Positions 6,434 through 44,751 of a stretch of DNA of 64,000 bases are shown here, in pieces. The first letter of the stretch is position 1. Each line of letters starts with the position of its first letter. The translations under genes and the position numbers were made by a program. This stretch comes from an uncultured Thiotrichaceae bacterium. Lineage in GTDB: Bacteria > Pseudomonadota > Gammaproteobacteria > SZUA-229. Below the pieces are notes generated by a model. That model was not told the DNA's origin. It saw nothing but the letters and a program-made list of their open reading frames with translations, and ran no database searches. Where the stretch lies: assembly GCA_964651445.1 (NCBI GenBank), contig CAZYYW010000001.1:173-64172 (forward strand), in the 5' to 3' direction.

Positions 6434-6461
6434 TTTTATATCCCATTTACACGTGCCATAG

Positions 6462-7364: not shown

Positions 7365-7366
7365 TT

Positions 7367-20446: not shown

Positions 20447-21850
20447 CTAAGAAAGGAGCCCTATAGAGGGTTTTGCATGTGCCATCCCTGGTTTATACGG
20501 CAAACTAAAAGTAAAAATCGCTCCCGCTTCACCGCTAACATTGCCGGCCGTTATCATGCCGCCGTGGTAGTGGATGATTTCCCGGCAAATTGCCAAACCT
20601 AGGCCGGTTCCACCAACGCCATTTACGGTTTTACTGGATTGTTCAAACTCATTAAAGATGCTTTCCAGTTCAGCTTCCGGTATACCGATGCCCTGATCGC
20701 GGATGATTAGCGATATCGCCGACACAGCACCCTTCATGGCATACTCCGTTTGCACATCAATTTCAGTTCTTTCAAAATTCACCTTGATGCTGGCGCCTGG
20801 CGGTGAAAACTTTATCGCATTCGACAACAAATTCTTGATGACCTGGTTTATCTTAATATTGTCAAACATTGCGAGGGTTTCTACTGTTGCCGGTACAACC
20901 TCTATTTCTAACGCTTTGCCGCTAAACAGTGGGCTTAATTCATCAATCGCTTTTGCCAATGTTGTTTGCAAGTCATTTTCTGTAACGATAAACTGCATAC
21001 GACCCGCTTCTAATTTAGAGAGATCAAGCAGGTCATCTAATAAGCCGAGTAAACGTTGTCCACTATCATTAATACGCATAAAATAATTACTGATTTTTGT
21101 ATTGATGTTAACGTCTACTTTTTCTGCGCCCAAACTGGAAAAGCCCAGTATTGCATGCATTGGTGTACGCAATTCATGCGACATTTTGGCTAAAAAATCT
21201 GATTTGGCACGGTTTGCTAATTCCGCCTTTTCACGCTGTAACAACAATTCATGTTCACGCTCATGGGAACGCACTTGCATCTTCAGCATTTCCGTCCAGT
21301 TTTGACAGTACGTTTTTGTGTTTTTCAATAAAAATAAAACCAGCAGAAATAACATGACCTCTAAAAAAACCAGATGATAACCCTGAATATACGTCTGTAG
21401 TTGCAAAGAAATCATCAGTGGCGTTATTACAATCAATATAAAAATCACCGAAAACTGCATCTGATACGATAAAGTCGTAGTAGCACCCGTCACTAATGTC
21501 GCGATGACCATGACTAATAACAACACGCTCTGACCATCAACCACCGGTATCAGAATAAGGCTTAAAGCGCCCCAGCAAGTCGCCGAAAAGAGGGTCCCAA
21601 ATAGTATAAACAGCCTCGCCCTTTTAAAATTTACCCTGCTCTCTCTTTTTGCTTTTTTATATGACAGTGCGGCAAGCAGGCGCAATAGGTCTACGCCAAG
21701 AATAGTGACAAACCAAAAATGGAATGCCATTGATTCGACTTTTGTGCTGAACATTAAATATAAAGCAATAACCGCACTAGCCATGATGGCAATCGAATAA
21801 AATCGGTTACTGTTAATAAGGTCAATTTGTGCTTCTTCAACTTCTGTCAT
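20447..21850 (-). CDS. membrane sensor histidine kinase (6-TM N-terminal sensor, HisKA, HATPase_c)
   Basis: H-box MSHELRTPMHAILGF; ATP-lid GTGLGLAI; about 200-aa polytopic N-terminal domain. Confidence 0.85.
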   Translation of the reverse strand: MTEVEEAQIDLINSNRFYSIAIMASAVIALYLMFSTKVESMAFHFWFVTILGVDLLRLLAALSYKKAKRESRVNFKRARLFILFGTLFSATCWGALSLILIPVVDGQSVLLLVMVIATLVTGATTTLSYQMQFSVIFILIVITPLMISLQLQTYIQGYHLVFLEVMLFLLVLFLLKNTKTYCQNWTEMLKMQVRSHEREHELLLQREKAELANRAKSDFLAKMSHELRTPMHAILGFSSLGAEKVDVNINTKISNYFMRINDSGQRLLGLLDDLLDLSKLEAGRMQFIVTENDLQTTLAKAIDELSPLFSGKALEIEVVPATVETLAMFDNIKINQVIKNLLSNAIKFSPPGASIKVNFERTEIDVQTEYAMKGAVSAISLIIRDQGIGIPEAELESIFNEFEQSSKTVNGVGGTGLGLAICREIIHYHGGMITAGNVSGEAGAIFTFSLPYKPGMAHAKPSIGLLS

Positions 21851-22178
21851 GGATATTATTTTTTTATTATTGTCATTACTTTACATTTTTTTACATAAAG
21901 CTTATTGCCAGTCTCTGGCGAATACTTATTATGTTAGGCAATCTTGGATTGATTCTGAATAAGCAGATTGCACGTCAGTTCCACGAATTAATCCGAGGTT
22001 CCTTAAAACACACTACAAAAACTTAACATATATTGAGAATAATATATTAAAGTTTAATGGCTTATATCCCGATATTGTTAACGATACTATAAATAACAAT
22101 ACTCTGGCTGTCATTATTAAATGATTCAAATGGACGTAACTATGAACACTAACTCAGTTTCAGAAATATTCATAAGCA

Positions 22179-25100
22179 GTGCAGGCTAACCATATGTCTG
22201 ATAAAAAACAAGCCGAGATGTCTGATAAAAAACAAGCCGAGCTAAAACGGCAGATTGCTCAACTAAAAAAAACCAATCGCACATTAAACGAGCGCATTGC
22301 TCGTACCATAAACAATGCCAATGAACCCGACAATCTACCCACAACTCTCTCTCAGACAGACGACAGTATAGGCAAAAAAACACACATAGTAACAACAAGT
22401 CGTCCCGAAATAAAAAAAGCTGCGGCTGTAAACAGTAATTTTCTGGCAACCATAAGCCACGAAATACGAACACCCATGAATGGCATTATGGGCATGCTGG
22501 AACTATTGCTTAAAACACCGGTGAATGAACGTCAACGCCATCTAGCCAGTACCGCACATAATTCTGCTGAATCCTTGTTGATGGTTATAAATGACATCCT
22601 CGATTTTTCCAGGATTGATTCTGGCAAATTACAGTTGTGCAAAGACAGCTTCAACCTGCTCCACTTGTTTAACGATGTTGTTGACCTGATTAGCGACAGT
22701 GCGCAGAAAAAAAATATCCGGTTAATTGTTCAACTCCCTGAAACAATAGAACATGATGTTATTGGCGACTCTGTTCGGCTACGTCAGGTAATGCTAAACA
22801 TACTGAACAATGCCATCAAGTTTACCGAACAGGGCGAGGTTGAACTATGCGCCACAATCGATACGCTAGACCGGTGTATGAAGGTCAACGTCGTGGTGCG
22901 CGATACGGGCATAGGCATAGAAACCGCCCGTCAACCCATTATTTTTGAACCATTCGAACAAGAAGGCAGCGCTCGTTCAACCAGAAATTTTGGTGGTACC
23001 GGTCTTGGCCTGGCGATTTCCCGCGATCTCATTGCACTTATGGGGGGTGAAATTACGCTGCAAAGTACGCTTGGTGAAGGCAGCGCCTTTCACTTTTCTA
23101 TCGAGCTAGGCATTGCAAGCCATACCACGAATGAAAAGGAAGTCAATAATGCTCGTATTTTACTGGCAGAAGACAACCATCTTAACCAGGAGGTCATGCG
23201 TGAGCAGTTAGATGTTTTAGGTTTCAACATTGAAGTCGTTGAAAACGGTCTACAGGCTCTTGATGCGATCAAACAAAATACCTATTCGCTGGTTTTTATG
23301 GACACTCATATGCCGTGCATGGACGGTTTTGCAGCCACCGAGGCCATTCGAACTTTTGAGCAGGAACAACGCCGCCCGCCTGTGCCTATTATCGCTCTAA
23401 CCACTGACACTTCTGCAAACATAGAAGCGCATTGTCAAAGAGTCGGCATGAATGCATCGATGGCAAAACCGTTTTCCATTGACGACATCGAAAATGTTTT
23501 AAGTGCATGGTTATGTAGCACAACGCAAACAAAACCTGCGATAAAAGATAAGGGAGAGCCTTCCATTGTAGACAGCGCAGAAGTGTTAAATATGGCGACC
23601 ATTGAACAGCTACGAAAACTGGGTAATAACAGTGGCAAGGATACTCTGGGCAATGTTATTAAACGCTTTCAGGAATCTTCTCTAGCTCAGCTACAAAGCA
23701 TGCAGCTTGCCGTAAAAAATAAAGATTACAGTGATTTTTCAGCCATCGCGCATGCTTTGAAATCTTCCAGCGCAACCCTTGGTGCCAGTCTGGTTTACAA
23801 CACCAGCGCCGAATTAGAACAACTCGCCAATGCCAATAAAACTGACGCCATCGCACAACACGTCATTCGACTGGAAAGACAATTACAGCTTTCTTTACAG
23901 ACCTTATATGATTTAAAAACAGCGCCCTACCCTGTCGGTACACCCACCGTTGGCAGCGGTCAGTATCTACTGCTGGTCGATGATGATATGGCTACACTGG
24001 AAATCATTCAAACGGCAATGCAACAATTCGGCTACAGAATAGACAGTGCCAGCAGCGGCCAGCAGGCACTGCAACTGATGCTCAATAATACGTATGATCT
24101 GGTCATTACCGATTTGCAAATGCCTGGCATGGACGGCTACGCACTATGCAGTGCTATTCGTGTGAACTACAGCCCAGAAACGCTGCCTATTTTGATTCTC
24201 ACCAGCACCGCTGATGATGTACAGGTACAACATGCTTACGAAACCGGCATTAGCAACTTTATTGTTAAACCGGTTAACTTGCTCAATCTTGCTTATACCG
24301 TGCTCTTTACTCTGCAAAATACGCGCAATGCTAAGGCGCTGTGGCATAACCAGCAATTACTGGAAGCGGCTGAGCATACCGCCCAAGTCAGCCACTGGTC
24401 ATGGGAAATAAACAAACAACAAATACAGTTCTCTCGCCATTTGCAACGCTACTTCAGTCAGCCTCTTGACGGCGTAACAAGTCTCGATGAATTAATTGCC
24501 GCCATTGGCAATAAAAGCATGCACAGCGCAGTAAAATCCTGCCTCAGCAATGGTCGTGAATCCAGTTGGGAGCAAGAAATTCATCAAACAGAAGCGACGC
24601 CTGCTCGCTATCTTCTACACCGCATTCGCATGGTTAACAGCAAGGATGAAAAACCCATGCTAATAGGCACGGTTCAGGAAATATCTTCCATTCGCCGCGC
24701 TGAACAACGCATTATGGAATTGGCCTATTATGATTCCCTTACTAAACTAAGCAGCCGTTCTAATTTTAACAATCAGCTAAAAAACTTAATTATCAGCTCA
24801 CGTCGGCGCTCTGAAAAATTTGCCTTGTTATACCTTGATTTGGATGAATTTAAAAACATCAACGACAGCTTTGGCCATGATGTAGGAGACCAACTGCTGA
24901 TAGAAGTTGCCAATCGTTTGCGCGAGCTACTTCGTGAATCCGACTTTGCCAGCCGTTTGGGTGGTGATGAGTTCTGCCTGTTAATAAACGATATTGAAGA
25001 CAATCTTTTTGCCGCCAACATTGCTCAACGGTGCCTAGAGTTACTGGCACTACCCTTCACTCTAGCCGGTACAACACTCACGCCTCATGCCAGCATCGGC

Positions 25101-26030
25101 ATCGCCATTTATCCTCATGATGGCAACAATAGCGGCACTTTGATCAAAGCCGCCGATACCGCCATGTACGAAGCCAAGAAAGCTGGCAAGCGACAATATG
25201 CATTTTACGAACCGGCGATGACAGATGCAGCGCAACACCGTTTAACCATTGAAAGCGATTTACGCAGCGCCCTCAAAGAACAACAGTTTGAACTATATTA
25301 CCAACCAAAAATTTCTCTTAGAAACGGAAAAATTCAAAGTGTCGAAGCCCTGATCCGTTGGAATCACCCTCACGGAAAACAACTAACACCGGATAAATTT
25401 ATTGCCGATGCAGAGCGCATAGGCCTAATCAAAGAACTCGGCGAGTGGGTGGTGCTGCAAGCCTGTAAGCAAATTAAAAAATGGCAGAATCAAGGTGTCA
25501 GCAAGCTGGCTGTTGCCGTCAATATTTCGCCTCAACATTTTGCTGAGACCAACTTTGCGCAAAATATTGCCAATATCGTGAACGCCAACGGCGTTTCATC
25601 TTCACTGATTGAAATAGAAATTACTGAAAGTACATCGCGTGACCAACAGGTATTTTTAAACACCTGCCGTCAATTACGTGAATTAGGTTTCACAACGGCG
25701 ATCGATGATTTTGGCACCGGCTACTCATCACTGTCAGTACTCAAAGGCGCATCTGTAGACGTATTAAAGATTGACCGTGAATTTATTCGCCACTTACCGA
25801 ATGATACACAATCATCAGTACTCGTTGGCACCATGCTAGGCATGAGCAAGGCACTGGGTTTGCAAGTAGTCGCCGAAGGCGTTGAAACCGAAGCCCAGCT
25901 AAAGGTACTTATCGCTATGGGCTGTCACATGGCACAGGGCTATTATTTCAGCAAACCGGTACCCGCTGCAGATATTCCAGCATTGACCAAATGCTGTTTT
26001 CGTCGACCCAATGCCGAACAGGTTGCATAA
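22179..26030 (+). CDS. multidomain signalling protein: HisKA-HATPase, REC, Hpt, REC, PAS, GGDEF, EAL. GTG start at 22179; ATG starts at 22194 and 22218
   Basis: H-box SHEIRTPMNG; two receiver domains (DTHMPCMDG, TDLQMPGMDG); Hpt HALKSSSATLGA; GGDEF with I-site RESD; EAL motifs EALIRW and DDFGTGYSSL. Confidence 0.9.
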   Translation: MQANHMSDKKQAEMSDKKQAELKRQIAQLKKTNRTLNERIARTINNANEPDNLPTTLSQTDDSIGKKTHIVTTSRPEIKKAAAVNSNFLATISHEIRTPMNGIMGMLELLLKTPVNERQRHLASTAHNSAESLLMVINDILDFSRIDSGKLQLCKDSFNLLHLFNDVVDLISDSAQKKNIRLIVQLPETIEHDVIGDSVRLRQVMLNILNNAIKFTEQGEVELCATIDTLDRCMKVNVVVRDTGIGIETARQPIIFEPFEQEGSARSTRNFGGTGLGLAISRDLIALMGGEITLQSTLGEGSAFHFSIELGIASHTTNEKEVNNARILLAEDNHLNQEVMREQLDVLGFNIEVVENGLQALDAIKQNTYSLVFMDTHMPCMDGFAATEAIRTFEQEQRRPPVPIIALTTDTSANIEAHCQRVGMNASMAKPFSIDDIENVLSAWLCSTTQTKPAIKDKGEPSIVDSAEVLNMATIEQLRKLGNNSGKDTLGNVIKRFQESSLAQLQSMQLAVKNKDYSDFSAIAHALKSSSATLGASLVYNTSAELEQLANANKTDAIAQHVIRLERQLQLSLQTLYDLKTAPYPVGTPTVGSGQYLLLVDDDMATLEIIQTAMQQFGYRIDSASSGQQALQLMLNNTYDLVITDLQMPGMDGYALCSAIRVNYSPETLPILILTSTADDVQVQHAYETGISNFIVKPVNLLNLAYTVLFTLQNTRNAKALWHNQQLLEAAEHTAQVSHWSWEINKQQIQFSRHLQRYFSQPLDGVTSLDELIAAIGNKSMHSAVKSCLSNGRESSWEQEIHQTEATPARYLLHRIRMVNSKDEKPMLIGTVQEISSIRRAEQRIMELAYYDSLTKLSSRSNFNNQLKNLIISSRRRSEKFALLYLDLDEFKNINDSFGHDVGDQLLIEVANRLRELLRESDFASRLGGDEFCLLINDIEDNLFAANIAQRCLELLALPFTLAGTTLTPHASIGIAIYPHDGNNSGTLIKAADTAMYEAKKAGKRQYAFYEPAMTDAAQHRLTIESDLRSALKEQQFELYYQPKISLRNGKIQSVEALIRWNHPHGKQLTPDKFIADAERIGLIKELGEWVVLQACKQIKKWQNQGVSKLAVAVNISPQHFAETNFAQNIANIVNANGVSSSLIEIEITESTSRDQQVFLNTCRQLRELGFTTAIDDFGTGYSSLSVLKGASVDVLKIDREFIRHLPNDTQSSVLVGTMLGMSKALGLQVVAEGVETEAQLKVLIAMGCHMAQGYYFSKPVPAADIPALTKCCFRRPNAEQVA
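22194..22241 (+). repeat. perfect 24-bp tandem duplication (ATGTCTGATAAAAAACAAGCCGAG x2) that includes the start codon
   Basis: Read directly; encodes MSDKKQAE-MSDKKQAE. Confidence 0.9.
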
Positions 26031-26033
26031 CCC

Positions 26034-26852
26034 ATGACGGTACACCATATTATCAAGCAGGAAATAGCACGTCAGCCTGACCTTCCGGTTTTACCCCCCG
26101 GCATATCTTCATTATTAAAAATGCTAAACGACGATGATATTGGCTACAGCGAGCTTGCCGACAAACTTGAAAATTTTCCATCCATTGCAATAAAAATAGT
26201 CTCAACGGCCAATTCTGCCTGGGCATCACCGGGTACGCCTATTACCACATTACGCAGTTGCTGCGCGCGCATTGGTGTCCCCGTGGTTCGCAGCATCGCC
26301 ATTGCAATCGCGGTGGCGCAAATATTTGACCCCAGTCGCTGCCCGGCATTTGATGCCAAAAAATATTGGTTAAGCGCCCTGTTAACTGCTGAAGCTGCAC
26401 AGCTATGTGCAAAAGACAATAATGACGTCTGTTCCGACACCGCCCGATTAGCCGGGCTGCTGCATAACATTGGTTTGTTATGGCTGGCCACACAAAAACC
26501 CAAAGCAACAAGCAAAGCCATCAACTTTAAAAAAAGCAATGAAGCACTTTCGCTCGCTCACTGTATGGCACAGTATGTAGAAGTGGATTATTTTACTGCC
26601 GGTGGTTATCTAGCCTCCTTTCTCGAACTGCCAGAACAATTGTCCGAGCTTATCGCCTGCCCCGCTTTAAATATAGTGCAGGATGACATCGCTATGCAGA
26701 ATCATCACCGTGCCTTACAGCTCGCCAGCAGCGCACTAACGGCTAACAATACTGCTGAGCATGACGAAATAATAGAGGATCCCTGCTTTGATCCTCTAAT
26801 GCATAAATTACCCGGTATCGAAACCATGGCGCGCAGCCTATTTTTTTCTTAA
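26034..26852 (+). CDS. HDOD-domain protein; start is 4 nt after the upstream stop, so translationally coupled to the HK-GGDEF-EAL gene
   Basis: HDOD signature LPVLPPGISSLLKMLNDDD...; HD-like HNIGLL. Confidence 0.8.
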   Translation: MTVHHIIKQEIARQPDLPVLPPGISSLLKMLNDDDIGYSELADKLENFPSIAIKIVSTANSAWASPGTPITTLRSCCARIGVPVVRSIAIAIAVAQIFDPSRCPAFDAKKYWLSALLTAEAAQLCAKDNNDVCSDTARLAGLLHNIGLLWLATQKPKATSKAINFKKSNEALSLAHCMAQYVEVDYFTAGGYLASFLELPEQLSELIACPALNIVQDDIAMQNHHRALQLASSALTANNTAEHDEIIEDPCFDPLMHKLPGIETMARSLFFS

Positions 26853-26888: not shown

Positions 26889-26913
26889 GAGACCTTTTCA
26901 CGATACAGGTCTC
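26889..26913. terminator. hairpin (GAGACCT-N11-AGGTCTC) between two convergent genes
   Basis: 7-bp inverted repeat read directly. Confidence 0.35.
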
Positions 26914-27722
26914 TATATATCCGGAAGTGCCATCTTATCCAAAACACCCTGCAGAATATCCAGATTGCGATGATAATTGATAATCAGCACACCTTGATCT
27001 TCATTGATATCAACATGTGCGCCAAAGTGTTCGGTTAACCGGGTTTCAAGTGCCAACACATCAGCTGATTTTTTAACGGATGCAGACGGTTGTAACACCG
27101 GCTTATGTGCACGCATAGTTCTTGCCACAGCTTCCGTTTGTTGAACCGTTAGATGCTCATCTTTGATTTGTTGTAATAAAAGTTGTTGTTGTTCCAATGG
27201 CAATCCAGCCATAATTTTTGCATGGCCAAAACCAATCATCGAACATTGTTTAATGTTGTCTAATAAGTGCTTTTCTATATTTAAAATTCGCATCAAATTA
27301 CACACTTCAGAACGGCTTTTCCCAATCAACGCGCCAGCCATTGTGAGGCTAATATTTTGTCTTTTAATACGCTGTTTTAATGCCAGCGCGCGGTCAATAA
27401 AATGCTCCTCAGTATTTATTAGATGTCCGTAATAGCCGTCAATTTCAGCAGAACTTAAATAATCCATATGTTTGACTGACACGGTTTGTTGTTGCAGCAT
27501 CTGAGCTAGTAGCCAGATTTTTGGTGAGCCAAGAATTTCAAAACGTGCCGGAGAATGCGCTAAAGCACGGACATGAACGTCCTCATGCAAACCGTATAAA
27601 CGCGCCCGCTCAAGTTCCTCCACGCTGATTTCTGCTTGCGTTAAACGCTGGGTCCACAATCCCGTTTGAAGTAAGTCGACATCAATTGGCATAACCGTGA
27701 GTATAGCGCAGATTGTTTTCAT
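26913..27722 (-). CDS. ParB-like protein with a degenerate N-terminal CTP/arginine motif (GSPKIWL instead of GERRWRA); canonical ParB HTH and C-terminal dimerisation region
   Basis: HTH GKSRSEVCNLMRILNIEKHLLDNIKQ...GHAKIMAGL matches the ParB HTH; C-terminus VLALETRLTEHFGAHVDINEDQGVLIINY is ParB-like. Confidence 0.6.
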   Translation of the reverse strand: MKTICAILTVMPIDVDLLQTGLWTQRLTQAEISVEELERARLYGLHEDVHVRALAHSPARFEILGSPKIWLLAQMLQQQTVSVKHMDYLSSAEIDGYYGHLINTEEHFIDRALALKQRIKRQNISLTMAGALIGKSRSEVCNLMRILNIEKHLLDNIKQCSMIGFGHAKIMAGLPLEQQQLLLQQIKDEHLTVQQTEAVARTMRAHKPVLQPSASVKKSADVLALETRLTEHFGAHVDINEDQGVLIINYHRNLDILQGVLDKMALPDI

Positions 27723-27890: not shown

Positions 27891-27907
27891 AATTCAACCG
27901 TTGAATT
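27891..27907. repeat. 17-bp palindrome AATTCAAC-c-GTTGAATT just downstream of parB; candidate partition or operator site
   Basis: Perfect 8-bp arms read directly. Confidence 0.3.
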
Positions 27908-27911
27908 ATTT

Positions 27912-28871
27912 CTATTTAGCAAGAAAACGAGTTAACGCCTTAATTACTGCAGTTTTGTCCGCCACTGCTGCCTTGCTCACCTTAATAGAAATTGCTCCGC
28001 TAGCCGATTGCTTTATCAACACCCCTTTAACATCACCCGCAACCGTGTACGTTTTTTCTACAGGCCGGCTCGAACCACTTTGCACGGCACTCTTACCGAC
28101 AAAAACCAATGTTTTCATTACACTCAATGTGCTGTCTGTCTGCCCTTTAAACTCACGCGCCTTTTCCAAAATCAATTTTTTTGACTTCGCTGATTTGTTC
28201 ATCAAGGAACGCAACATGATCGCCTGTTTAACACTGATCTCAAATTTGTTTGGCAATACAGACGCAATCTCCGGCGCCATGTCTGCTATCGCCATCCAGT
28301 TGGACAATGTGCCCTCACCAATGTCATTTTCAAGACAATAATTTTTCTGGTTTCCAGCATAAATTTCAGAGATAACTTTTTTTGCATTCATCGCTTTTTC
28401 ATACGCCGTTGTATCGTCACGTTCCTGATTTTCACTGCGCATGATTTTATAGGCTTGTTTGTCATCGACGTCTATTAGCGCAATATGAATTTTCTTTGCG
28501 GGAAGATGAGAACAAGCCCAGAAACGTCGAGTGCCAATAATAATCTGATAGGCTTTTTTACCCGCGGGGTCACGCCGTGCAATGACAGCCTGTAATTGCG
28601 TATTTTTTTGTATATCATCAACAAGTGATTTACAATTTTCCATACTGAGACCGTCATAAATACGGTCATTATATTTCCACAAACAGCAATCATCGGTCGA
28701 AACCGTTAGTTCTCGCAGCCCTGCCTCTGCCGCTTCATCCAGTACTGGATTCGGGTTCTGTGAGAGAAACGCCCTACCACGGCTGTGCAAACCTGTTTTA
28801 TGACGCGGTTTGACATCGATGTTTTCCAGGTCAGCGCCTTCTGCAATATCGTTTATTCTTGTTCTAGCCAT
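27912..28871 (-). CDS. parB: ParB/Spo0J family partition protein (plasmid type)
   Basis: N-terminal ParB box IIGTRRFWAC (GxRR motif); follows parA. Confidence 0.8.
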   Translation of the reverse strand: MARTRINDIAEGADLENIDVKPRHKTGLHSRGRAFLSQNPNPVLDEAAEAGLRELTVSTDDCCLWKYNDRIYDGLSMENCKSLVDDIQKNTQLQAVIARRDPAGKKAYQIIIGTRRFWACSHLPAKKIHIALIDVDDKQAYKIMRSENQERDDTTAYEKAMNAKKVISEIYAGNQKNYCLENDIGEGTLSNWMAIADMAPEIASVLPNKFEISVKQAIMLRSLMNKSAKSKKLILEKAREFKGQTDSTLSVMKTLVFVGKSAVQSGSSRPVEKTYTVAGDVKGVLIKQSASGAISIKVSKAAVADKTAVIKALTRFLAK

Positions 28872-28890
28872 TGCTTTATCTCCGGTTTAT

Positions 28891-30072
28891 TTATGCTGTT
28901 TTTATTTTGTTTCTTATGCTCGGCCAGTTTTTCAGCAATTCATGCAACACTTCTTCGCACATCGCATCTACTGAAGCCATGGCGGATCTGAAGCTTTTAT
29001 AACTGGTTGTCTGACCATGAACTTCGAACAGCGTTTTAAATTCACTGGCAGCATTATCGATAGCGGTTGATTCATAGATAATACTCTCCAGCATGTATTC
29101 GTTACCAAAAATGCGACGGGCAAGTGCTAAAATATCATCTTCTGCGCGCGCATATTTCTCGTTGGTGTTGCGTTGTTTTTTCTTGGAAGTCACCAATTTA
29201 ACGAAATCATATTCAATTTGCGTATCATAATGGCCTTGAATTTCATCCAAAGTTTCATGCAACATATTAAAAAACTGTAACGAAGAGGTGAAATCCAACA
29301 TTCTTGGTGGCATCGGCACTAACAAGCTGGTGGCTGCAACCAGAGCATTAATACTGAGCATGCCCAGTGCCGGTGGTGGGTCAATAATAATGACTTCAAA
29401 ATCTTTTTTAATGCTTTCAATGCCTTCTGGCAAATACGAGTAAATCGGTCGTTGCGCATGGTTTGCTGCCACCATGTATTCCGCATTGTAAAGTTGCAAA
29501 TTAGCTGGAATTAAACTCAGATTTTCGATCATGGTGTCGCGTATAGCATAATGCATAGTCCGTTGCTCACCTTCAAAAAAGGGCAGCAAAGTATCATTGG
29601 CATCAATATCCATATCCGGGGTATAGCCAAATAAGGTCGTCGCTGAAGCCTGACTATCAAGATCAATTAGCAGTACACGAAAACCTCGAATCGCCAACCA
29701 CTGCGAAAGATGAACCGCAATGCTGGTTTTACCCACGCCACCCTTAAAATTTTGCACCGCAAGCACTGCAGGGTCTTCACCCGCTTCTAGCCTCGGCATG
29801 GTATTAAAATGACGACGCGCCCGGTTGATTTCTGATAATGAAAAACCACGCGCGTTGGAGGCGTCGCTACGGGTTGCTTCAATGGCACCCTGCTTCTCAG
29901 CATCTCGAATAGTGGTAGGATGTCGTCCAATAAGCCCCGACGCCTCACCTATTTTAAAAGATTTATTAAAACGTTTTTGACCATCCGGACTAAAAATATG
30001 CGTTTTAATATGTTTAATAATTTTGTCAGAACGCTGAACCAAATCAGCTAGCTCGTTTATGGAAACAGTCAT
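28891..30072 (-). CDS. parA: type Ia ParA/SopA-like partition ATPase with an N-terminal HTH extension
   Basis: Deviant Walker A NFKGGVGKTS; about 100-aa N-terminal extension with an HTH, as in P1 ParA / F SopA; 393 aa. Confidence 0.9.
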   Translation of the reverse strand: MTVSINELADLVQRSDKIIKHIKTHIFSPDGQKRFNKSFKIGEASGLIGRHPTTIRDAEKQGAIEATRSDASNARGFSLSEINRARRHFNTMPRLEAGEDPAVLAVQNFKGGVGKTSIAVHLSQWLAIRGFRVLLIDLDSQASATTLFGYTPDMDIDANDTLLPFFEGEQRTMHYAIRDTMIENLSLIPANLQLYNAEYMVAANHAQRPIYSYLPEGIESIKKDFEVIIIDPPPALGMLSINALVAATSLLVPMPPRMLDFTSSLQFFNMLHETLDEIQGHYDTQIEYDFVKLVTSKKKQRNTNEKYARAEDDILALARRIFGNEYMLESIIYESTAIDNAASEFKTLFEVHGQTTSYKSFRSAMASVDAMCEEVLHELLKNWPSIRNKIKTA

Positions 30073-30123
30073 GACCCCTCACTTTTACGATTTGAAAATG
30101 GTATTTTGTATCGTTATACCTGT

Positions 30124-30139
30124 AGATAACAAGTTATCT
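30124..30139. promoter_or_regulatory. perfect palindrome AGATAAC-AA-GTTATCT in the divergent parA/rep intergenic region; candidate ParA or Rep autoregulatory operator
   Basis: Read directly; type Ia ParA proteins autoregulate via their N-terminal HTH. Confidence 0.4.
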
Positions 30140-30266
30140 TTTGATTTTTATTATACATACTACTAAGATAATTCAAATACATTATTCGTTTTTCTTGACA
30201 ATATATGGCATTATTCGGTATAAATAGCGGATATAGAGCTGTTTTTCAGGATTAAAATAATAATAA

Positions 30267-31379
30267 TTGCATAATTTGATTGCGACACACAAAAATCAAA
30301 ACGTGCCGGAGGGTAGGATAGTGCCAAATAAAGCCATGCAACGTGTACTCAAACGAGGCAAAGAAGCAGAACAACGCATTCAGCAGAGCAGGGCGCAAGT
30401 TGCCGAATTGCAACCAGAGACCATACAACTAAAGCCTGAAACCAAGAAAGAAAGCCGCGCTCGTAATGGTATGACCAGCGAAAAAATAGTTGCGCTGGCA
30501 GAAAACGAAATCTACAAAAACGAACAGATTGGCTTATTCGACGCAATACCTGTTTCCGAGCGAAAAGTTTTTCCAACCTTACTCACACGCATTCCTATCT
30601 TCATGCCCATCACTAAGGCCAAACAAAAAAAATTATTGGATGAAGATAATGCACTGCCATTTGAAACACCATTCGGCAAGGGAAAACGTTATGGTGCTAA
30701 TTTAACCGTGTTTGATGAAGACGTACTTTACGCTTTGTCACGTTTATCCCATAAAAAACTAATCGGGCCGCACAATAACATGCCCATTAAAGTATCTAAG
30801 ATTTACAAAGCCAATAAGAAAGGCAGCGTAAATGTCGATACCGTTGTTTGCACTGTCACCAATATTCTGGATGCCCTCAGCATGTCTAAAGGCGGAAAAA
30901 TGCGTAAAGACGTTATCGATTCACTGGAACGTTTAACCTCAACCACCTTGATTTTGTCACTCAAAAAAGAAGACCGTTACCTGGGTAAATGTGAAATAGG
31001 AAAACCCATTAAACTCGTCGATATTGAATGGCAGTTGTATTCCACCGATGGCATTATTTATGCACAATTCTCACCGATAGTTACGTACTGGTTGGAAAGT
31101 GAATACACCTATATAGATTGGGAAAGCCGTCGTAAACTTAAAAATCGTCTGGCCAAAGCATTACATCGTTATCTAAGTTCTCAACCCAAAGATTTCTTTA
31201 AATTAAACAAACTTGACGACATTTCAGCCTCTATTGGTTACCACGCACGAAAATGTGACATGAAAAGTGCTTACAGCAAAGCCATTGATGAATTAATAAA
31301 AGTTGGATTTTTAATCGACGCCGAAATACTGGGAACGGGCAGGGCGGATCCTTTTAGATTGTACGCCACTAGAAAGTAA
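30267..31379 (+). CDS. putative iteron-binding plasmid replication initiator (Rep). The true start may be GTG near 30321 or ATG at 30336, which follow the RBS GGAGGG
   Basis: Position: divergent from parAB, immediately upstream of the iteron arrays and DnaA box. No unambiguous family motif recognised. Confidence 0.55.
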   Translation: MHNLIATHKNQNVPEGRIVPNKAMQRVLKRGKEAEQRIQQSRAQVAELQPETIQLKPETKKESRARNGMTSEKIVALAENEIYKNEQIGLFDAIPVSERKVFPTLLTRIPIFMPITKAKQKKLLDEDNALPFETPFGKGKRYGANLTVFDEDVLYALSRLSHKKLIGPHNNMPIKVSKIYKANKKGSVNVDTVVCTVTNILDALSMSKGGKMRKDVIDSLERLTSTTLILSLKKEDRYLGKCEIGKPIKLVDIEWQLYSTDGIIYAQFSPIVTYWLESEYTYIDWESRRKLKNRLAKALHRYLSSQPKDFFKLNKLDDISASIGYHARKCDMKSAYSKAIDELIKVGFLIDAEILGTGRADPFRLYATRK

Positions 31380-31395
31380 AGTCTGAAAAAAGCAA

Positions 31396-31521
31396 CGTAC
31401 TAAAATAGGTTTAAGGCTTCAGCAAAGCGGTATTATTACTCAAAAGCTGTGTACTAAAAACGGTTTTAGCGTTTTACAATACCGATATAAAACATAAAAA
31501 AACGTACTAATAACGGTTTTA
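31396..31521. repeat. iteron cluster A: three 19-bp direct repeats, consensus CGTACTAAnnnCGGTTTTA
   Basis: Copies begin at 31396, 31449 and 31503. Confidence 0.8.
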
Positions 31522-31622
31522 GTACTTAACAAAGAAATGAAATAACATCGTCTATAACAACATTTCTTTATTAAATCGTTGATTTTTTTAGCTATTTTCA
31601 ACATTGCTATAGTAAATAAAAT

Positions 31623-31631
31623 TTATCCACA
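31623..31631 (+). promoter_or_regulatory. consensus DnaA box TTATCCACA inside an AT-rich stretch between the two iteron clusters
   Basis: Exact 9/9 match to the DnaA box consensus, flanked by an AT-rich tract (31561-31620). Confidence 0.5.
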
Positions 31632-31638
31632 ATCGTGC

Positions 31639-31744
31639 GTACTAAATACGGTTGAACAGTGTACTAATGTCGGTTTTATAGCGTACTAACGATGGTTTTA
31701 TTGCGTACTAAAAAGGGTTTAACAACGTACTAAACACGGTTTAA
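31639..31744. repeat. iteron cluster B: five 19-bp direct repeats at 21-22 bp (two helical turn) phasing; candidate oriV
   Basis: Copies begin at 31639, 31661, 31683, 31704 and 31726, all of the form (C/T)GTACTAAnnnnGGTTnnA. Confidence 0.85.
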
Positions 31745-31907
31745 CAACAATAAGTAACAACTTAAGCTATTGATTTTATTGGTTTTATTGAACAGCTTTA
31801 AACCTTTAGTCTTGTATAGTCTTTATTAAGTCTTTCTTTAGTCAAACACAGTCAGTGTTTTATAAAAGACTTATACATAAAAAACAAACCAAGGGTGAAA
31901 GCACTTT

Positions 31908-32798
31908 TTATAAATAGTAATAAAGTTTTAATGACTCAGATAAAGGATGTGTTTTATCAATTTTGCCATCACGTGGTAAACGTATAATTTCATCCTGTTG
32001 CATTTTAAGTAAAGTTTGTTCTCCATTATGAATAACAGAACCAATACGGGATGATTGTTCAATATTATAAGGGTACAAAATAGGTAAGTAGGCGGATACT
32101 TGATCTGGACGATTTTGGCGGCGCTGTCGATCGACATAACTAATATTTGCTCGAGTATGGCAGGCTCGCTGCCGATATCGCGCAACAAAACTATTAATCG
32201 GTAATTGTTGTAATTTTTCAATGGCCGTATCGTTATTTCTTTTGGCTGCAAAAGCCAAAGCCTGCTTACGTGATAAGCGTTCAACTATATGACTACCTTT
32301 TGAAACAGTAAAACCTACCTTCAAGGGCATTTCTGCCAAGACAATAATTTTACGGGTAGACTGTTTGATGTGAAGTTGACTCAAACCAGCAGCACCCAGT
32401 GCTTCACGTATGATCGGTGAACGTTTAATTTCAGTAAAAGCACTGGCAACTAATTCATTACGGTCATTTTGTTTGAGATCTTTAATGGCTGTTTTTAAAG
32501 CAAACTTACAATGATTAACCTGTGTGACACATAATAGAGTATCGCGACTAGCCGCCATTAAACCAAAACGGGTAAATGATTCTTTTGGGTTGATACCTTT
32601 AACCAGCGTCAGTGCCTGGTAGATAGAAATAATGGCGTCACTGGCACAAAGGGATTTTTCTTCATGGTATTGAATCCATGCGGGAAGGCCATTTTTTGCG
32701 TCTAGGCGTATGTGGCTTCCCAGTGTTTCTAAAACAGTAACCAATGCTTTATAAGCATCAATTATGGCTATGCGTTTTGCTGAAAGTAGAGTATTCAT
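31908..32798 (-). CDS. hypothetical protein adjacent to oriV (replicon-associated; function unknown)
   Basis: 296-aa ORF, basic C-terminal half; no family recognised. Confidence 0.4.
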   Translation of the reverse strand: MNTLLSAKRIAIIDAYKALVTVLETLGSHIRLDAKNGLPAWIQYHEEKSLCASDAIISIYQALTLVKGINPKESFTRFGLMAASRDTLLCVTQVNHCKFALKTAIKDLKQNDRNELVASAFTEIKRSPIIREALGAAGLSQLHIKQSTRKIIVLAEMPLKVGFTVSKGSHIVERLSRKQALAFAAKRNNDTAIEKLQQLPINSFVARYRQRACHTRANISYVDRQRRQNRPDQVSAYLPILYPYNIEQSSRIGSVIHNGEQTLLKMQQDEIIRLPRDGKIDKTHPLSESLKLYYYL

Positions 32799-32822
32799 TA
32801 TTGCACCGAATATTTTATAGCG

Positions 32823-32941
32823 TATATTTATACATTCATAATATAGCGGAATAGTGAGTAAGTAAAGTCTTGTTATATCTTTAGTTTTTATGTTTTCAGA
32901 TTTATTAATTAAGTGAGTATGTTTATGAATGTATAAATATA
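32823..32941. repeat. perfect 18-bp inverted repeat pair (TATATTTATACATTCATA ... TATGAATGTATAAATATA) flanking 83 bp in a divergent promoter region
   Basis: Arms at 32823-32840 and 32924-32941 are exact reverse complements. Confidence 0.6.
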
Positions 32942-33055
32942 CATATTGTTACAATAGGGCATATCTCTTGCATGTTAGTATTAAGCTACACAACAAGAAC
33001 TTAAACTAGTTTGACTATTTGATAGTGAGAACAACACTAATCTGCGTAACCTTAT

Positions 33056-37433: not shown

Positions 37434-38471
37434 TTACTCTGCATCATTATTAATTAGCGGAAAGTGCAAACTTCCAGCCGCTTTTCGCATTTCTTTTATT
37501 TCTCGACGATCATAATTGGCGGTTGTTTTAGGGTCACTATGGCCCGCTAAAGCCTGCGCCATTCTAAGATCACCGGTTTCTTCTAAAATGGTAGAGATAA
37601 ATGTCTTCCTGAAATCATGTGGTGAAATCTCAGCTATACCTGCCTCAGATTGGCGTTTTTTAACGACATTGTAGATTGCCTGATCGGATAGTCGACCGGC
37701 TTGAATTTTTCCATTTTTAAGAACGCGGTAGAAGAGGGCACCATCATGATCACCGCGAAGTTCTAACCACTGTTTAACCGCTATCACTGTGCCATCATCT
37801 AAAAACAACATGCGCTCTTTATTGCCTTTACCGATCACGCTGGCTTCCTTTAATTCAAGATCAATGTCCTCTACATTTAGATCTGCCACTTCAGAACGAC
37901 GCAAACCACCGATGTACATCAAGCCAAAAATAGCCAGGTCTCTATAGGCAGCTGGTGACCGTTTTTCTGGGCTGTCATCCTTTTTGTTTTTAACTTTTAA
38001 GAAATCGTTTAAGCACGCATCGACCAATGCCTTAATCTCTCCTTGACTCATCATCCGTCCTGTTGGCAAGCGAACACCTGCAACCATTTTCACCAACATA
38101 AGACGTTGGTAATCATCCGCTGACATTAATTTCATCGCCATCGCAGCCCTCACGGTGCCACGAACGGCTGAAATAATAGCGTTAATAGTGGTATGAGCGT
38201 ATTTTTGTTGCTGTAACACGCCAATAAGCGTTTGCAGGTGTTCATACTGAATCGAAGCCCAGGGTGTATGTTGATAACCTTCATAATCAAACAAGATGGC
38301 TATTTTATTCATATGACTTTTTACCATACGCTTGGTCGCTTCAGATTTTCCTGACAGATAAGTATCGACCGGGTTGGCGTATATAGAAACTTCACCGTGT
38401 AAAGTCGGTAATGCAGGAATCTCTTTTGAGCTGCTTTTTATTGAGGTGAATCTAGAATCACGACGCGCCAT
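37434..38471 (-). CDS. tyrosine site-specific recombinase / integrase
   Basis: C-terminal catalytic region HDFRKTF...LAGHSDPKTTANYD (R, H-x-x-R, Y). Confidence 0.85.
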   Translation of the reverse strand: MARRDSRFTSIKSSSKEIPALPTLHGEVSIYANPVDTYLSGKSEATKRMVKSHMNKIAILFDYEGYQHTPWASIQYEHLQTLIGVLQQQKYAHTTINAIISAVRGTVRAAMAMKLMSADDYQRLMLVKMVAGVRLPTGRMMSQGEIKALVDACLNDFLKVKNKKDDSPEKRSPAAYRDLAIFGLMYIGGLRRSEVADLNVEDIDLELKEASVIGKGNKERMLFLDDGTVIAVKQWLELRGDHDGALFYRVLKNGKIQAGRLSDQAIYNVVKKRQSEAGIAEISPHDFRKTFISTILEETGDLRMAQALAGHSDPKTTANYDRREIKEMRKAAGSLHFPLINNDAE

Positions 38472-38497
38472 TTAATCACTCTTTGTTATTATTCAGG

Positions 38498-39598
38498 TTA
38501 GTCGATGAGCAACGAATAACGGGTGCTGCGACCACCACCTGGTTCTTTTTGTAATACACCGCGCTGCATTAGATCGAGGATATCGCGATAAGCGGTATCT
38601 TGAGAACACTTTGTCATCTTTGCCCATTTTGAGGTACTTAGCTTGCCTTCAAAATCATCCAGTAATCGATTTAAAACTTTTATCTGTCGCTGGTTAAAAG
38701 GTACTTTAGCAAAGCGCTCCCAGAAACGAGCCTTTGCCAGAACATCGCTTAAGGTGTCTTGTGTACCCTCGATTGCGCGTAATAGGCAATTTAAAAACCA
38801 CTGTTGCCAGCGACTGACATCAAGCTCACCTTTTTGTGTCCATTCCAACACATTGTAATAATCTTTTTGTTGAAGACGGATTTGTGCTGACATACTATAA
38901 AAACGTTGGCCTGTTTTTTCTGAGCGAGCGAGAGCCATATCTGCTATCGCGCGAGCAATACGACCATTGCCATCGTCAAACGGGTGAATAGTAACAAACC
39001 ATAGATGAGCCAGACCCGCTATGAGCAGTGGGTCGATGTCTCCAGGATGCTCAAACCAGTGCAGAAATTCTTCTATCTCATTAGAGACACTTTTGGCTGC
39101 TGGCGCTTCGTAATGCACTTTTTCATGCCCAATTGCACCTGAAACCACCTGCATTGGACCTGTAGTGTCATCTCGCCATTGCCCTACACGGATTTTATTC
39201 ATGCCACTTCTGCCCGTTGGAAATAGTGCAGCATGCCAGCCGAATAACCGCTCTTCAGTCAGTGCATCACAATATCTCCCTGTTGCATCAAGCATCATCT
39301 CAACCACACCCTCAACATTCCGCTCAGCAGAGACAAGTCCCTCTATATTCATACCGAGTCTGCGCGCGATTGATGAGCGTACTTGCTCTGGTTGAAGGTT
39401 TTCGCCTTCAATTTCACTTGTCTTAACAACATCTTCCGTCAGGATGCGGAGATGCGCTTCGTTCGATAATTCAAATCCGAGTGCCTCCATTCTGCCCAGC
39501 AGCCGACCTTGTTCACGTGACACTTGTGTCAATAGTTTTGTTATACGGCTGTCATCCCAGGTAAAAGTCGGCCAATCAGATTTCTGCCATAAATACAT
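38498..39598 (-). CDS. Fic/DOC family protein (adenylyltransferase-type FIC motif) with a C-terminal winged-helix
   Basis: FIC motif HPFDDGNGRIARA. Confidence 0.85.
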   Translation of the reverse strand: MYLWQKSDWPTFTWDDSRITKLLTQVSREQGRLLGRMEALGFELSNEAHLRILTEDVVKTSEIEGENLQPEQVRSSIARRLGMNIEGLVSAERNVEGVVEMMLDATGRYCDALTEERLFGWHAALFPTGRSGMNKIRVGQWRDDTTGPMQVVSGAIGHEKVHYEAPAAKSVSNEIEEFLHWFEHPGDIDPLLIAGLAHLWFVTIHPFDDGNGRIARAIADMALARSEKTGQRFYSMSAQIRLQQKDYYNVLEWTQKGELDVSRWQQWFLNCLLRAIEGTQDTLSDVLAKARFWERFAKVPFNQRQIKVLNRLLDDFEGKLSTSKWAKMTKCSQDTAYRDILDLMQRGVLQKEPGGGRSTRYSLLID

Positions 39599-39879
39599 TA
39601 TAATCTCCGCATGTTACGCGGATATAATGACTGATAATCACCGCATACGCAAGAGTATTCTCATTATTACTTGCGGAGAATAACTGCCGTAATCTCCGCA
39701 TAAGCCGTACAACATATATTAACATTACTTTTGATAATGTATATTATCATAAGTAATAATACAAGAACAATATCTTCGTCAGCAGGTTAATGAAGGCACG
39801 TAAGAAAAATATCTAACTTTTACAGAAGATACTAGCGTATTCATAGAACACTCTACAATATAGAGTAATACAAGCAAAC

Positions 39880-41586
39880 TTACGCGCTGATTTCGCCTTG
39901 AAACACAGTACAACGATTTCGCCCAGAATGTTTGCTCTGATAAAGTGCCTGATCCGCTCTTTTGAGAACAATTTGCTTGGTATCATCGGCCGTGAACTCA
40001 GCAAGGCCGACAGAAGCGGTCACGGTTATTTGCTCACCCTGATATTTGAAATTACAGCTTAGTAATGTTTCTCTAAGTTTGTTATTAAATGCTAATGCTT
40101 TATCGATAGGAGTATCCGGCATTAATAGGACAAATTCTTCACCGCCAATTCTGGCGAACATATCTGTATTGCGTATTCTTTCCTGGATGACATTGGCGAA
40201 AAGTTTTAAAACCCGGTCGCCCACATCATGCCCATAGGTATCATTAACATTTTTAAAGTGATCTATGTCCCACATCGCGAGTGTTAGTGGTGATTGTAAG
40301 CGTTTGTAGCGACTGGCTTCGACGGCAATTCTTTCCTCATAAGCCAGCCGGTTGTATACGCCTGTTAAAGAGTCGCGTAATAATTGGCTTTTACTTATTT
40401 CAAGCTCAGTTTTTAATCTTTCTGATTCATTTTGAGTGGAGCTAAGTTCTGCAATAATTTGCGTATACCCTTGCATGGATAGTTTTTCTTTTTCCTGTGC
40501 TGCATCTTTATTATCTTCAACCTGTTTCCTAATATCCTTTAAGTGTACAGATATGTCTTTTTTAAGATCAACGATATTACTTGAAGAAGATACTTTATCC
40601 TGTATATAACCAACACTGGCATTCACTGTTTCTTCTAAATTAGTAGAGCGATTGACTGATTCTTCCTGGTTTAAGAGTGTCAATTCCATGTAGTTTTTAA
40701 TCTCAGATAACTGCTTACTAATTTTAAGAATAAACTCTTGCAAGTCCATATTTTCCAATTGAACTGAATTAACGAAATTATTGACAAGGTCAAGTAATTC
40801 AGAAAATAGATTTTTACGATATTCATTACTATCTACAGGATTAACAAGTATTTTTAAAAGTGCTATCTGTTGCGATTTCATTTTTGTAGGCAGTGCAAGT
40901 TGATTAACCATATCAGTAAGATGTGAATAGAAAGATACATTGTGCGATTGTTTATTTTCGATATTAAGGTTGTTATCGCCAGCTTTAATTGTCGTTATGT
41001 ATTTTGACAATTCAATGACAATATCCTGCATAACCTGTGTTGCGCTTTGGCTATTCCGATTATATTGAAATCCCGTGCTAGTAGTAACGTCATTAATAAA
41101 ACCATTAATAGTTTTATTAATGACGTCTTCATCAGCATGAGTGCTTTTAGTTAATGAATTATTTATGATGGTAATTATTTCCGCACCGGTCTGCTTTTCA
41201 TCGCGATCGTTGTTTACCAGTGTATCGATTATGACCTTGCAATCGTCAGAACAATCGACTTCCTTCATGCCTTGCTTAAGTGCAGAACAGATGACGGAAT
41301 TTTCTGATAAACCTTTCTGAAAGTCAGAATGATTGGTTAAAACAAATAGTTTGTCTAATTGCGAATCCAAGATTTCTAAATTAATATTTTTCTGCGTCGA
41401 TGAGGTAATGCTTTTTAGTAATAAATTGACCTCGTTATCATGATTGTTAAAGCCTGCAGCAAGCCTGATAACCGATTTTTTCAATAATTTTCTGGTGGTA
41501 TTTAATTGCGCTTGTGAAGTACTCAACAACTTGACGGATTTCTCGTAAATATTCTTGATTTCATTTTCTGGTGAATAAAGACTCAT
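39880..41586 (-). CDS. GGDEF diguanylate cyclase with a long N-terminal coiled-coil/helical domain (HsbD-like position)
   Basis: RIGGEEF active site; I-site RNTD; about 380-aa helical N-terminal region without TM segments. Confidence 0.85.
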   Translation of the reverse strand: MSLYSPENEIKNIYEKSVKLLSTSQAQLNTTRKLLKKSVIRLAAGFNNHDNEVNLLLKSITSSTQKNINLEILDSQLDKLFVLTNHSDFQKGLSENSVICSALKQGMKEVDCSDDCKVIIDTLVNNDRDEKQTGAEIITIINNSLTKSTHADEDVINKTINGFINDVTTSTGFQYNRNSQSATQVMQDIVIELSKYITTIKAGDNNLNIENKQSHNVSFYSHLTDMVNQLALPTKMKSQQIALLKILVNPVDSNEYRKNLFSELLDLVNNFVNSVQLENMDLQEFILKISKQLSEIKNYMELTLLNQEESVNRSTNLEETVNASVGYIQDKVSSSSNIVDLKKDISVHLKDIRKQVEDNKDAAQEKEKLSMQGYTQIIAELSSTQNESERLKTELEISKSQLLRDSLTGVYNRLAYEERIAVEASRYKRLQSPLTLAMWDIDHFKNVNDTYGHDVGDRVLKLFANVIQERIRNTDMFARIGGEEFVLLMPDTPIDKALAFNNKLRETLLSCNFKYQGEQITVTASVGLAEFTADDTKQIVLKRADQALYQSKHSGRNRCTVFQGEISA

Positions 41587-41588
41587 AG

Positions 41589-44162: not shown

Positions 44163-44518
44163 TGCCCAACCCCGACTTTATCCCTCGTTTCAGTATTGAT
44201 TCCACAAGTATAATTGATGGTAAATAACTGCTCAAAATTAGCTACTTTCAAAATGGTATCAACTTGTTTGCTGGGGCGTTCTATAAATACTGCGCCACCA
44301 TGACACTTTGCATGCTCACGCAGCAACAGCAACATGCCCAATGCAGAACTGTCCATATAATTAGTATCGCTTAAATCAACGTAGTAGGACATGCTGTCTT
44401 GGCCTGTAATTCGACGATAGCTATCCCTGAATGCTTGGGACACTTTATAATCAAATCGTCCACTTATATTGATGTGTACTTTTTTTCCGTCGCTAGACAC
44501 TTCTTGACTTACAGACAT
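44159..44518 (-). CDS. STAS-domain anti-sigma-factor antagonist (HsbA/RsbV-like)
   Basis: 119 aa; STAS fold with conserved phospho-serine region DSSALGMLLLL; 4-nt overlap with the downstream gene. Confidence 0.8.
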   Translation of the reverse strand: MSVSQEVSSDGKKVHINISGRFDYKVSQAFRDSYRRITGQDSMSYYVDLSDTNYMDSSALGMLLLLREHAKCHGGAVFIERPSKQVDTILKVANFEQLFTINYTCGINTETRDKVGVGH

Positions 44519-44751
44519 AATACAGGCTCCCAGTTTCTTTTAGAAATAACACTACTACTGAAACTATCGACCATCTGTGGATAATGTTTAGTGGTTTTTA
44601 TAAAATCCAGGTTTTTAAATCATACTGCCGGACAATGTTGCTTTCGCAATATCAACAAAGCAGCTTCATTGCGACATCCGTTAGACGACAGTGAGATAGA
44701 TAAAGCCGTGCCATACTCGGCGTATCGAACTAACTCAAAGTAAGTAGGTAG

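Follow-up and report, generated by a model that had tools for sequence, protein, structure and literature searches.

The window, i.e. the whole 64-kb stretch of DNA that was analysed, contains a locus in which the gene pair parB-parA is followed by a divergently oriented gene for a putative replication initiator (rep) and then by a candidate origin of replication. This is the layout of a whole replicon family, and its features are listed in Table 1.

Table 1. Genes and sequence features of the replication locus in the 64-kb window
Feature	Position	Strand	Remarks
parB, 319 aa	27912..28871	-	Pfam ParB_N and NCBIfam TIGR00180 above cut-off
parA, 393 aa, long SopA/RepA-like ATPase	28891..30072	-	AAA_31 and CbiA domains
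rep, putative replication initiator, 352 aa	30321..31379	+	GTG start 30321, RBS GGAGGG 30308-30313
rep-proximal iteron S1, CGTACTAAAATAGGTTTA	31396..31414	+	CGTAC..GGTT core invariant in 9 aligned loci
rep-proximal iteron S2	31450..31468	+	54 bp past S1
rep-proximal iteron S3	31502..31520	+	53 bp past S2
left AT-rich tract between the arrays	31522..31622		21.8% GC, window 41.5%
IHF-consensus match AATCAACGATTTA (WATCAANNNNTTR)	31572..31584	-	left of DnaA box
DnaA box TTATCCACA	31623..31631	+	exact; 6 nt before first tandem iteron
five tandem iterons	31638..31744	+	exactly 22 bp; starts 31638, 31660, 31682, 31704, 31726
IHF-consensus match AATCAATAGCTTA	31763..31775	-	within fixed 58-nt spacer
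four T-rich units TAGTCTTG / TAGTCTTT / AAGTCTTT / TAGTC	31806..31843	+	candidate unwinding element
hairpin AAACAC-agtca-GTGTTT	31844..31860	+	fifth AGTC in loop
inverted unit AAAAGACTTA (reverse complement of TAAGTCTTTT)	31864..31873	-	right edge of conserved module

Initiator gene, partition genes and neighbourhood

The rep reading frame is unannotated, with neither a Pfam nor an NCBIfam assignment. Its start was placed at position 30321 because of the ribosome binding site and of a 352-aa homolog with 99% identity (P0001). The protein stayed below the gathering thresholds of the Pfam families RPA (PF10134; 20.3 bits at a cut-off of 27), Rep_3 (PF01051) and TrfA (PF07042), and no NCBIfam model was found for it. 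Across 25 family members only sub-threshold matches were obtained for RPA (14/25) and Rep3_N (10/25), and a TrfA match was seen in a single member (1/25, weak, E 0.0056). As a search of PDB sequences with the Rep profile gave nothing at E <= 1, a fold comparison was used. The AlphaFold model of Rep (pLDDT 82.8, pTM 0.78) was matched by Foldseek, each time with a probability of 1.00, to domains 2-3 of RctB (5tbf, E 3.7e-5), to RepE54 (E 1.2e-4) and to the Pi-iteron complex (2nra, E 4.8e-4), and the predicted structure has the two winged-helix domains (WH1-WH2) of this type of initiator. The gene is named rep here because its predicted fold matches those of the iteron-binding initiators RctB, RepE and Pi.

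A profile search in 1.84 billion representative proteins delivered 99 clusters (50% identity) at E <= 1e-30 and 213 at E <= 1e-10. Ninety-three related loci were fetched from MAGs and metagenomes, and plasmid regions were taken from PLSDB. A scan of contigs with the single Rep protein found no relative, while an alignment-based scan did. The closest named source of a Rep homolog is an uncultured Methylomarinum MAG, with 86% Rep identity.

ParA matches TIGR03453 (E 3e-77) and the SopA model (E 7e-62), both below the equivalog cut-offs, and its gene lies divergently upstream of rep in 77 of the 93 loci. A parB gene is found in the same position in 48 related loci. Directly downstream of parB we detected a second ParB-like gene (26913-27722, - strand, 269 aa) with HTH_ParB and ParB_C domains, a homolog of which was found in 24 related loci, in many of them in the same position. 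To judge by the gene order, this looks like a partition operon of three genes.

To the right of the locus, the ORF 31908-32798 (- strand) was considered as a part of the replicon and rejected, as it is not conserved among related loci. Just upstream of this ORF there is a perfect 20-nt inverted repeat (32822-32841 / 32923-32942) with arms 81 nt apart, in a stretch of 20-26% GC. The flanks (20447-26852 and 37434-49335) are rich in genes of two-component and c-di-GMP signalling, among them genes for a 1283-aa hybrid kinase with GGDEF-EAL, an HDOD protein and further GGDEF/EAL proteins, and a tyrosine integrase is encoded at 37434-38471. Such signalling genes together with an integrase are typical accessory cargo of a large plasmid or chromid. 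The GC skew has no sign change at the origin locus.

Iterons, DnaA box and co-divergence of the iterons with Rep

In the 64-kb window we detected eight copies of CGTACTAAnnnnGGTTT on one strand, all within 31396-31744; written with its flanking variation, (C/T)GTACTAAnnnnGGTT(T), the repeat likewise has eight copies in 31380-31750. The first one begins 17 nt past the rep stop codon. The core GTACTAANNNNGGTT has eight exact matches in 64 kb, all on the + strand and all at the origin locus, with starts at 31397, 31451 and 31504 in the spaced set (spacing 54 and 53) and at 31639, 31661, 31683, 31705 and 31727 in the tandem set (spacing exactly 22). With at most one mismatch, 10 matches were counted against 0.84 expected, a number that was reached in 0 of 100 shuffles. 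An earlier description of this DNA, the sequence-only reading, had proposed five iterons at a phasing of 21-22 bp and three more widely spaced copies; both sets are present, the former with a period of exactly 22 and the latter on the same + strand. The iteron size of 19 bp given there is a fair description, since a conserved core of 17 nt lies within a 22-bp unit. The same source had named membership in a dispersed repeat family as a refutation of its reading; this is rejected because no exact match lies elsewhere in the 64 kb and none of the shuffles reached the observed count, the iterons being confined to one locus of the window. Iteron-containing theta replicons of the RK2, P1, F, R6K, pPS10 and pSC101 type have three or more such repeats, 17-22 bp long and set about two turns of the helix apart, beside an initiator gene, and with five repeats at exactly 22 bp plus three more the locus agrees with them.

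The DnaA box predicted between the two arrays proved to be an exact TTATCCACA on the + strand. It is invariant in 9/9 aligned close loci. Of 28 distinct loci that bear the conserved block described below, 24 have it with at most one mismatch, always on this strand and at a constant offset. The only other perfect TTATCCACA of the window (44576-44584, - strand) has no iterons nearby and is probably due to chance. Two relatives (L051, P0045; L052, P0050) encode a Rep with an N-terminal DnaA domain I (PF11638, best E 4.5e-12) and have no perfect DnaA box downstream of rep. This fusion might take the place of recruitment via a DnaA box.

To the left of the DnaA box, an AT-rich tract of roughly 60 bp had been noted from the sequence. 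The tract is real; its length was underestimated and amounts to about 100 bp (31522-31622). It holds an inverted repeat (31526-31539 / 31561-31574) and an IHF-consensus match with the motif TAAnnnnTTGATT, which is kept in most close relatives. The second match lies to the right of the tandem array, where the family motif TAACTnATTG(A/T)TTTTAT stands in register across 30 loci and is a perfect IHF consensus in the window. As this low-information consensus occurs at chance rate window-wide (6 perfect matches in 64 kb against 6.25 expected, 2 of the 6 in the origin), we give weight to the two IHF-like sites only for their clustering within about 200 bp and for their conservation. No GATC was found in 31380-31910. 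The iterons are adjoined by a DnaA box and by AT-rich sequence, the latter on both sides.

The order of elements is retained in about 90 related loci, three complete plasmids among them: downstream of rep come spaced iterons, then a perfect DnaA box on the rep strand and then the best 22-bp-periodic stretch. Where nine close loci were aligned, neither the DnaA box nor any of the eight iteron cores (CGTAC...GGTT) shows a change, and the spacers between the iterons vary. The 22-bp register is kept also in relatives with unrelated iteron sequences, for which the variants GTACTAA, GTACCAA, CGTGTAATAGGTG, CCGTAGT..GTC and CGTTCTAAC..GACCGAA are examples among others. With growing Rep distance, the mismatch of iteron consensus sequences with one another rises from 0.22 to 0.71 (random sequence would give 0.75), and iteron distance correlates with Rep distance (Mantel rho 0.67; 0 of 2000 permutations reach the observed value).

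The direct repeats could also be thought of as a partition centromere bound by ParB instead of as iterons bound by Rep. Some partition centromeres are arrays of direct repeats, and parA and parB adjoin the repeats of our locus and are co-inherited with them. However, the repeats follow the divergence of Rep at constant ParB identity: a locus with 71% Rep identity (L021) keeps the iteron of the window and one with 45% (L027) is without it, at a ParB identity of about 60% in both. Because these two loci differ at equal ParB identity, the repeats track Rep and not ParB. Moreover, loci whose ParA is of a different, short type and in which no ParB homolog was detected (L057, L064, L088) still show the architecture, and the array is locked at 6 nt from the DnaA box with 22-bp phasing. 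On these three grounds the ParB centromere was rejected and is regarded as highly improbable.

Assignment of the repeats to Rep leaves the three copies next to rep to be accounted for. Relatives carry 1-8 rep-proximal iterons, nearly always on the same strand, with spacings that cluster at 43-45, 53-56, 65-66, 77-78, 90-91, 100, 108, 121 and 133 bp; 37 of 49 real spacings are within +/-2 of a multiple of 11 bp. That the relatives keep same-strand copies near such multiples argues for a function of the spaced iterons. P1 incA and the upstream iteron cluster of RK2 act in copy control by titration or handcuffing. By analogy it is plausible that the three spaced iterons, which are located outside the fixed module from DnaA box to block, form an incA-like copy-control array, as the sequence-only reading had suggested, and that this array works through Rep titration or handcuffing. 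In one relative (L005) the iterons next to rep are organised in a higher-order repeat of about 120 bp (+8 to +580 past the rep stop). Every copy of this repeat also contains ATTGATTTTTTGTCCAC(G/A), in which a near-consensus DnaA box comes after an IHF-like motif. All five tandem iterons of this locus are near identical (65/66 matches at period 22), which suggests that they were recently homogenised.

Right-hand block and proposed site of opening

Besides the elements named so far, a conserved block (31806-31873) was detected to the right of the tandem array; only the DnaA box is better conserved. The block and both IHF-consensus matches were missing from the sequence-only reading. The block starts with four T-rich units whose AGTC lies at 31808, 31818, 31829 and 31840, i.e. 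at a spacing of 10-11 bp, and continues with a hairpin and an inverted unit. The hairpin is hence placed between oppositely oriented T-rich units, and in most loci 'AAAAG' follows directly after it. Downstream of rep, 37 of 69 loci have a + strand chain of four or more units, compared with 2 such chains elsewhere in about 0.97 Mb on both strands; in about a third of the loci with enough downstream sequence no chain was detected by the criterion used.

The position of the block is fixed. The geometry can be written as DnaA box + 6 nt + N x 22 + 58 nt + TAGTC block, and the distance from the DnaA box to the block is 173-175 nt in 20 and 194-196 nt in 4 of 28 distinct loci. The block of the window starts 174 nt from its DnaA box. 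On the three complete plasmids, pDH1, pTs485 and the plasmid of Ca. Tenderia electrophaga, the module has a spacing of 173-174 nt and is the sole recognisable replicon feature found near rep; it is still present on pTs485 of Ca. Thiodictyon syntrophicum, the Rep of which is only 29% identical. On pDH1 of Methylomonas sp. DH-1 (NZ_CP014361.1, L094, 277.9 kb) the module is inverted and lies 2.7 kb from rep, and no iteron array was found within the first 1.5 kb past rep. It occupies locus positions 6114-7895 on the - strand, in a 3.2-kb gap without annotation, with 9 or more widely spaced iterons ahead of it; for the rep homolog the annotation reads hypothetical protein. The replication protein of pDH1 has been given as 'DnaC' (PMC6373157). 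A megablast of 27900-32800 against PLSDB gave no match and no near-identical plasmid, and a blastn search of PLSDB with a consensus-like query of spacer and block likewise remained without a match, the query being short, AT-rich and little informative. In the searchable literature we found nothing that joins Methylomonas, plasmid and iterons, and no description of this replicon.

For the hairpin, conservation was assessed by a direct search for stems in comparison with control segments. This took the place of MAFFT and RNAalifold, which returned no structure for the region, with distant members misaligned. Stems of at least 6 bp stand at the hairpin position in 22 of 30 distinct loci, compared with 11.8% of the control segments. 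About ten distinct stem sequences occur, all of them still complementary (AACCAC/GTGGTT, CGTCA/TGACG, CCGCCAC/GTGGCGG and ACTGGTGCA/TGCACCAGT are examples), and to judge by these sequences the hairpin is maintained by compensatory changes. Its DNA fold z-score is -2.2. A comparison with Rfam gave only two miRNA matches at chance level and no family, a scan for intrinsic terminators found none, and the promoter scan did not rise above shuffles.

Over Rep distances at which the iteron mismatch goes from 0.22 to 0.63, that of the block goes only from 0.31 to 0.34. Conservation of the units extends to loci where the iterons have changed, so that the factor which reads the units would be conserved as well. 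Concerning their number, most loci with 5 iterons have 4 units plus hairpin, and two independent six-iteron lineages (L058/L059 and L012/L013) have 5 units plus hairpin. Exceptions are L063 with 7 iterons and 5 units and L072/L075 with 6-7 iterons and 4 units. As these loci break the rule, a strict one-to-one match of iterons and units was rejected and the agreement in number is given no weight.

On which side of the array would the duplex open? In the least stable 40-bp windows the left tract reaches -41.5 and the right block about -42.5 to -43.6, and with instability so similar on the two flanks, the answer has to come from the relatives. Opening in the tract 31522-31622 beside the DnaA box, as in P1 oriR, F oriS and pPS10, would leave the right-hand block to serve another purpose. 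It would be in keeping with a tract that has the lowest GC of the region (21.8%), is among the least stable 40-bp windows, holds a perfect IHF-consensus match and abuts the DnaA box. However, this tract has no conserved repeated units, its length is far from constant in relatives (89 to about 1700 nt between rep stop and DnaA box) and its GC content follows that of the genome (r = 0.79), reaching 49-61% in GC-rich relatives. The unit block stays at 15-40% GC, also in loci where the left tract is at 49-61%. With its length and GC unconserved and the right block fixed and AT-rich, the unwinding element was probably misplaced when the sequence-only reading put it between the arrays, and we consider opening on the left to be unlikely.

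In RK2 oriV, DnaA boxes and iterons are followed by an unwinding element with four 13-mers, one strand of which is bound by TrfA, and in F the iteron-bound RepE binds 8-mers of the unwinding element, an arrangement called loop-back (PMC4980987; PMC10602881). By comparison, T-rich repeats at 10-11 nt are the form which unwinding elements take in oriC and RK2 oriV. Because the block is AT-rich, stands at a fixed distance and consists of T-rich repeats, because the left tract is variable and because RK2 offers a precedent, we favour, with some reserve, an unwinding element on the right of the array.

Alternatively, the TAGTCTTT units and the hairpin could act as a boundary or priming element and not as the opening site, be it an origin-shielding terminator, a hairpin for single-strand initiation or helicase loading, or the site of a conserved host protein. 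The preservation of the hairpin by compensatory changes, the inverted unit behind it and the conservation of the units where iterons diverge would fit such a role, as would hairpins that are GC-rich and followed by a T run in several relatives (L057, L038, L064). The stem in the window, however, consists of 6 A/T-rich pairs with no T run, no terminator was called there and no Rfam family was matched, and the fixed 58-nt spacing with T-rich repeats at 10-11 nt resembles an unwinding element loaded by Rep or DnaA (PMC4980987). This alternative appears rather unlikely as a replacement for the opening site, and boundary or priming and opening roles are not mutually exclusive.

Taken together, all features that define an iteron-type theta origin are present at the level of sequence. 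The proposal of an iteron-type origin made from the sequence alone is supported by the fold of Rep and the adjacency of its gene, by a layout that recurs in dozens of loci and on three plasmids, and by the co-divergence of iterons and Rep. We conclude that the locus is probably the vegetative iteron-type theta origin of a large plasmid or chromid, the uncultured host of which is a gammaproteobacterium related to Methylococcales, with opening at the right-hand units. According to this model, monomers of the 352-aa two-winged-helix Rep would bind the five 22-bp-phased iterons, and host DnaA would occupy the one DnaA box, which precedes them by 6 nt. Bending would occur at the IHF-like site in the fixed 58-nt spacer, and the duplex would open in the T-rich TAGTCTTT units that follow the array on its right after 58 nt. 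One strand could then be held by iteron-bound Rep or by a host factor, much like the loop-back complexes formed by RepE and TrfA, and DnaB could be loaded. The three rep-proximal iterons, near multiples of 11 bp and outside the minimal origin, may limit the copy number by titration or handcuffing. More tentatively, and with somewhat more doubt than trust, we suggest that the TAGTCTTT units and the co-varying hairpin represent an undescribed, family-wide element for origin opening and helicase loading, which a conserved surface of Rep might read as ssDNA in a loop-back complex of fixed geometry, made up of the iterons, the bent 58-nt spacer and the units, with about one unit per iteron.

The origin itself is unsurprising; new are the unannotated family and the conserved module of units plus hairpin at fixed spacing. 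An origin and an initiator can now be assigned to a replicon family that is labelled 'hypothetical protein' and has no Pfam or NCBIfam model. The family comprises megaplasmids of methanotrophs and sulfur oxidisers, including pDH1 of the biotechnology strain Methylomonas sp. DH-1, and a minimal replicon of about 1.7 kb (30200-31900) could underlie native shuttle vectors and incompatibility-based curing. As the spacing of iterons and block is fixed, the loop-back model of origin opening can be tested by comparing loci. If the units were indeed read as ssDNA, the specificity of an initiator for dsDNA could be told apart from that for ssDNA in a natural experiment, since the iterons of the family have drifted as far apart as random sequences and its units have not.

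Comparison with known iteron-type origins

R6K gamma and its initiator Pi share with the locus 22-bp direct tandem iterons, flanking IHF sites (IHF-like at the locus) and a DnaA box, and the Pi-iteron complex is one of the structural matches of Rep. R6K has seven iterons whereas five are found here, the positions of the AT-rich segment and of the DnaA box differ, and there is no sequence homology.

The plasmids P1 (oriR-repA-incA) and F (oriS-repE-incC) possess an origin array at two helical turns and a looser copy-control array across or beyond rep. The locus resembles them in having a phased origin array with a looser second array, in its use of a DnaA box and in the long partition genes of ParA/SopA type beside the replicon. 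In contrast to P1 and F, the two arrays share one strand and are both located downstream of rep, the DnaA box is placed between the arrays and directly against the origin iterons, a GATC cluster is absent and Rep has no significant sequence similarity to the Rep_3 family.

In ori2 of Vibrio cholerae chromosome 2, parAB lies beside the initiator gene and the origin combines an AT-rich tract that has short repeats with a DnaA box and a site for IHF. The locus agrees with this in its parAB genes, DnaA box, IHF-like site and AT-rich tract, and RctB is the best structural match of the predicted Rep. RctB was shown to bind AT-rich ssDNA (PMC10602881). However, Rep with its 352 aa aligns with domains 2-3 only, whereas RctB has about 658 aa and four domains. 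Neither a four-domain initiator of that size nor the methylation-dependent 11/12-mers with their GATC nor the 39-mers of ori2 were seen at our locus.

In the oriV of RK2/RP4 (IncP), DnaA boxes come first, then the five iterons of the minimal origin and last an AT-rich unwinding element of short repeats, which in RK2 are four 13-mers; the elements of the locus, with the right-hand block as candidate unwinding element, stand in this order as well. RK2 also has an additional three-iteron cluster outside the minimal origin, which influences the copy number. The differences concern the initiator, as Rep is not a member of the TrfA family and rep adjoins the origin, whereas trfA is remote in RK2, and they also concern the elements: one DnaA box compared with four, iteron units of 22 bp compared with 17-mers, and units of about 8 nt at a spacing of 10-11 nt that end in a conserved hairpin. 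By sequence criteria, Rep stands outside the Rep_3, RPA, TrfA and RctB families. Judged by analogy, the closest layout is that of RK2 oriV, and the closest folds are those of RctB domains 2-3 and RepE.
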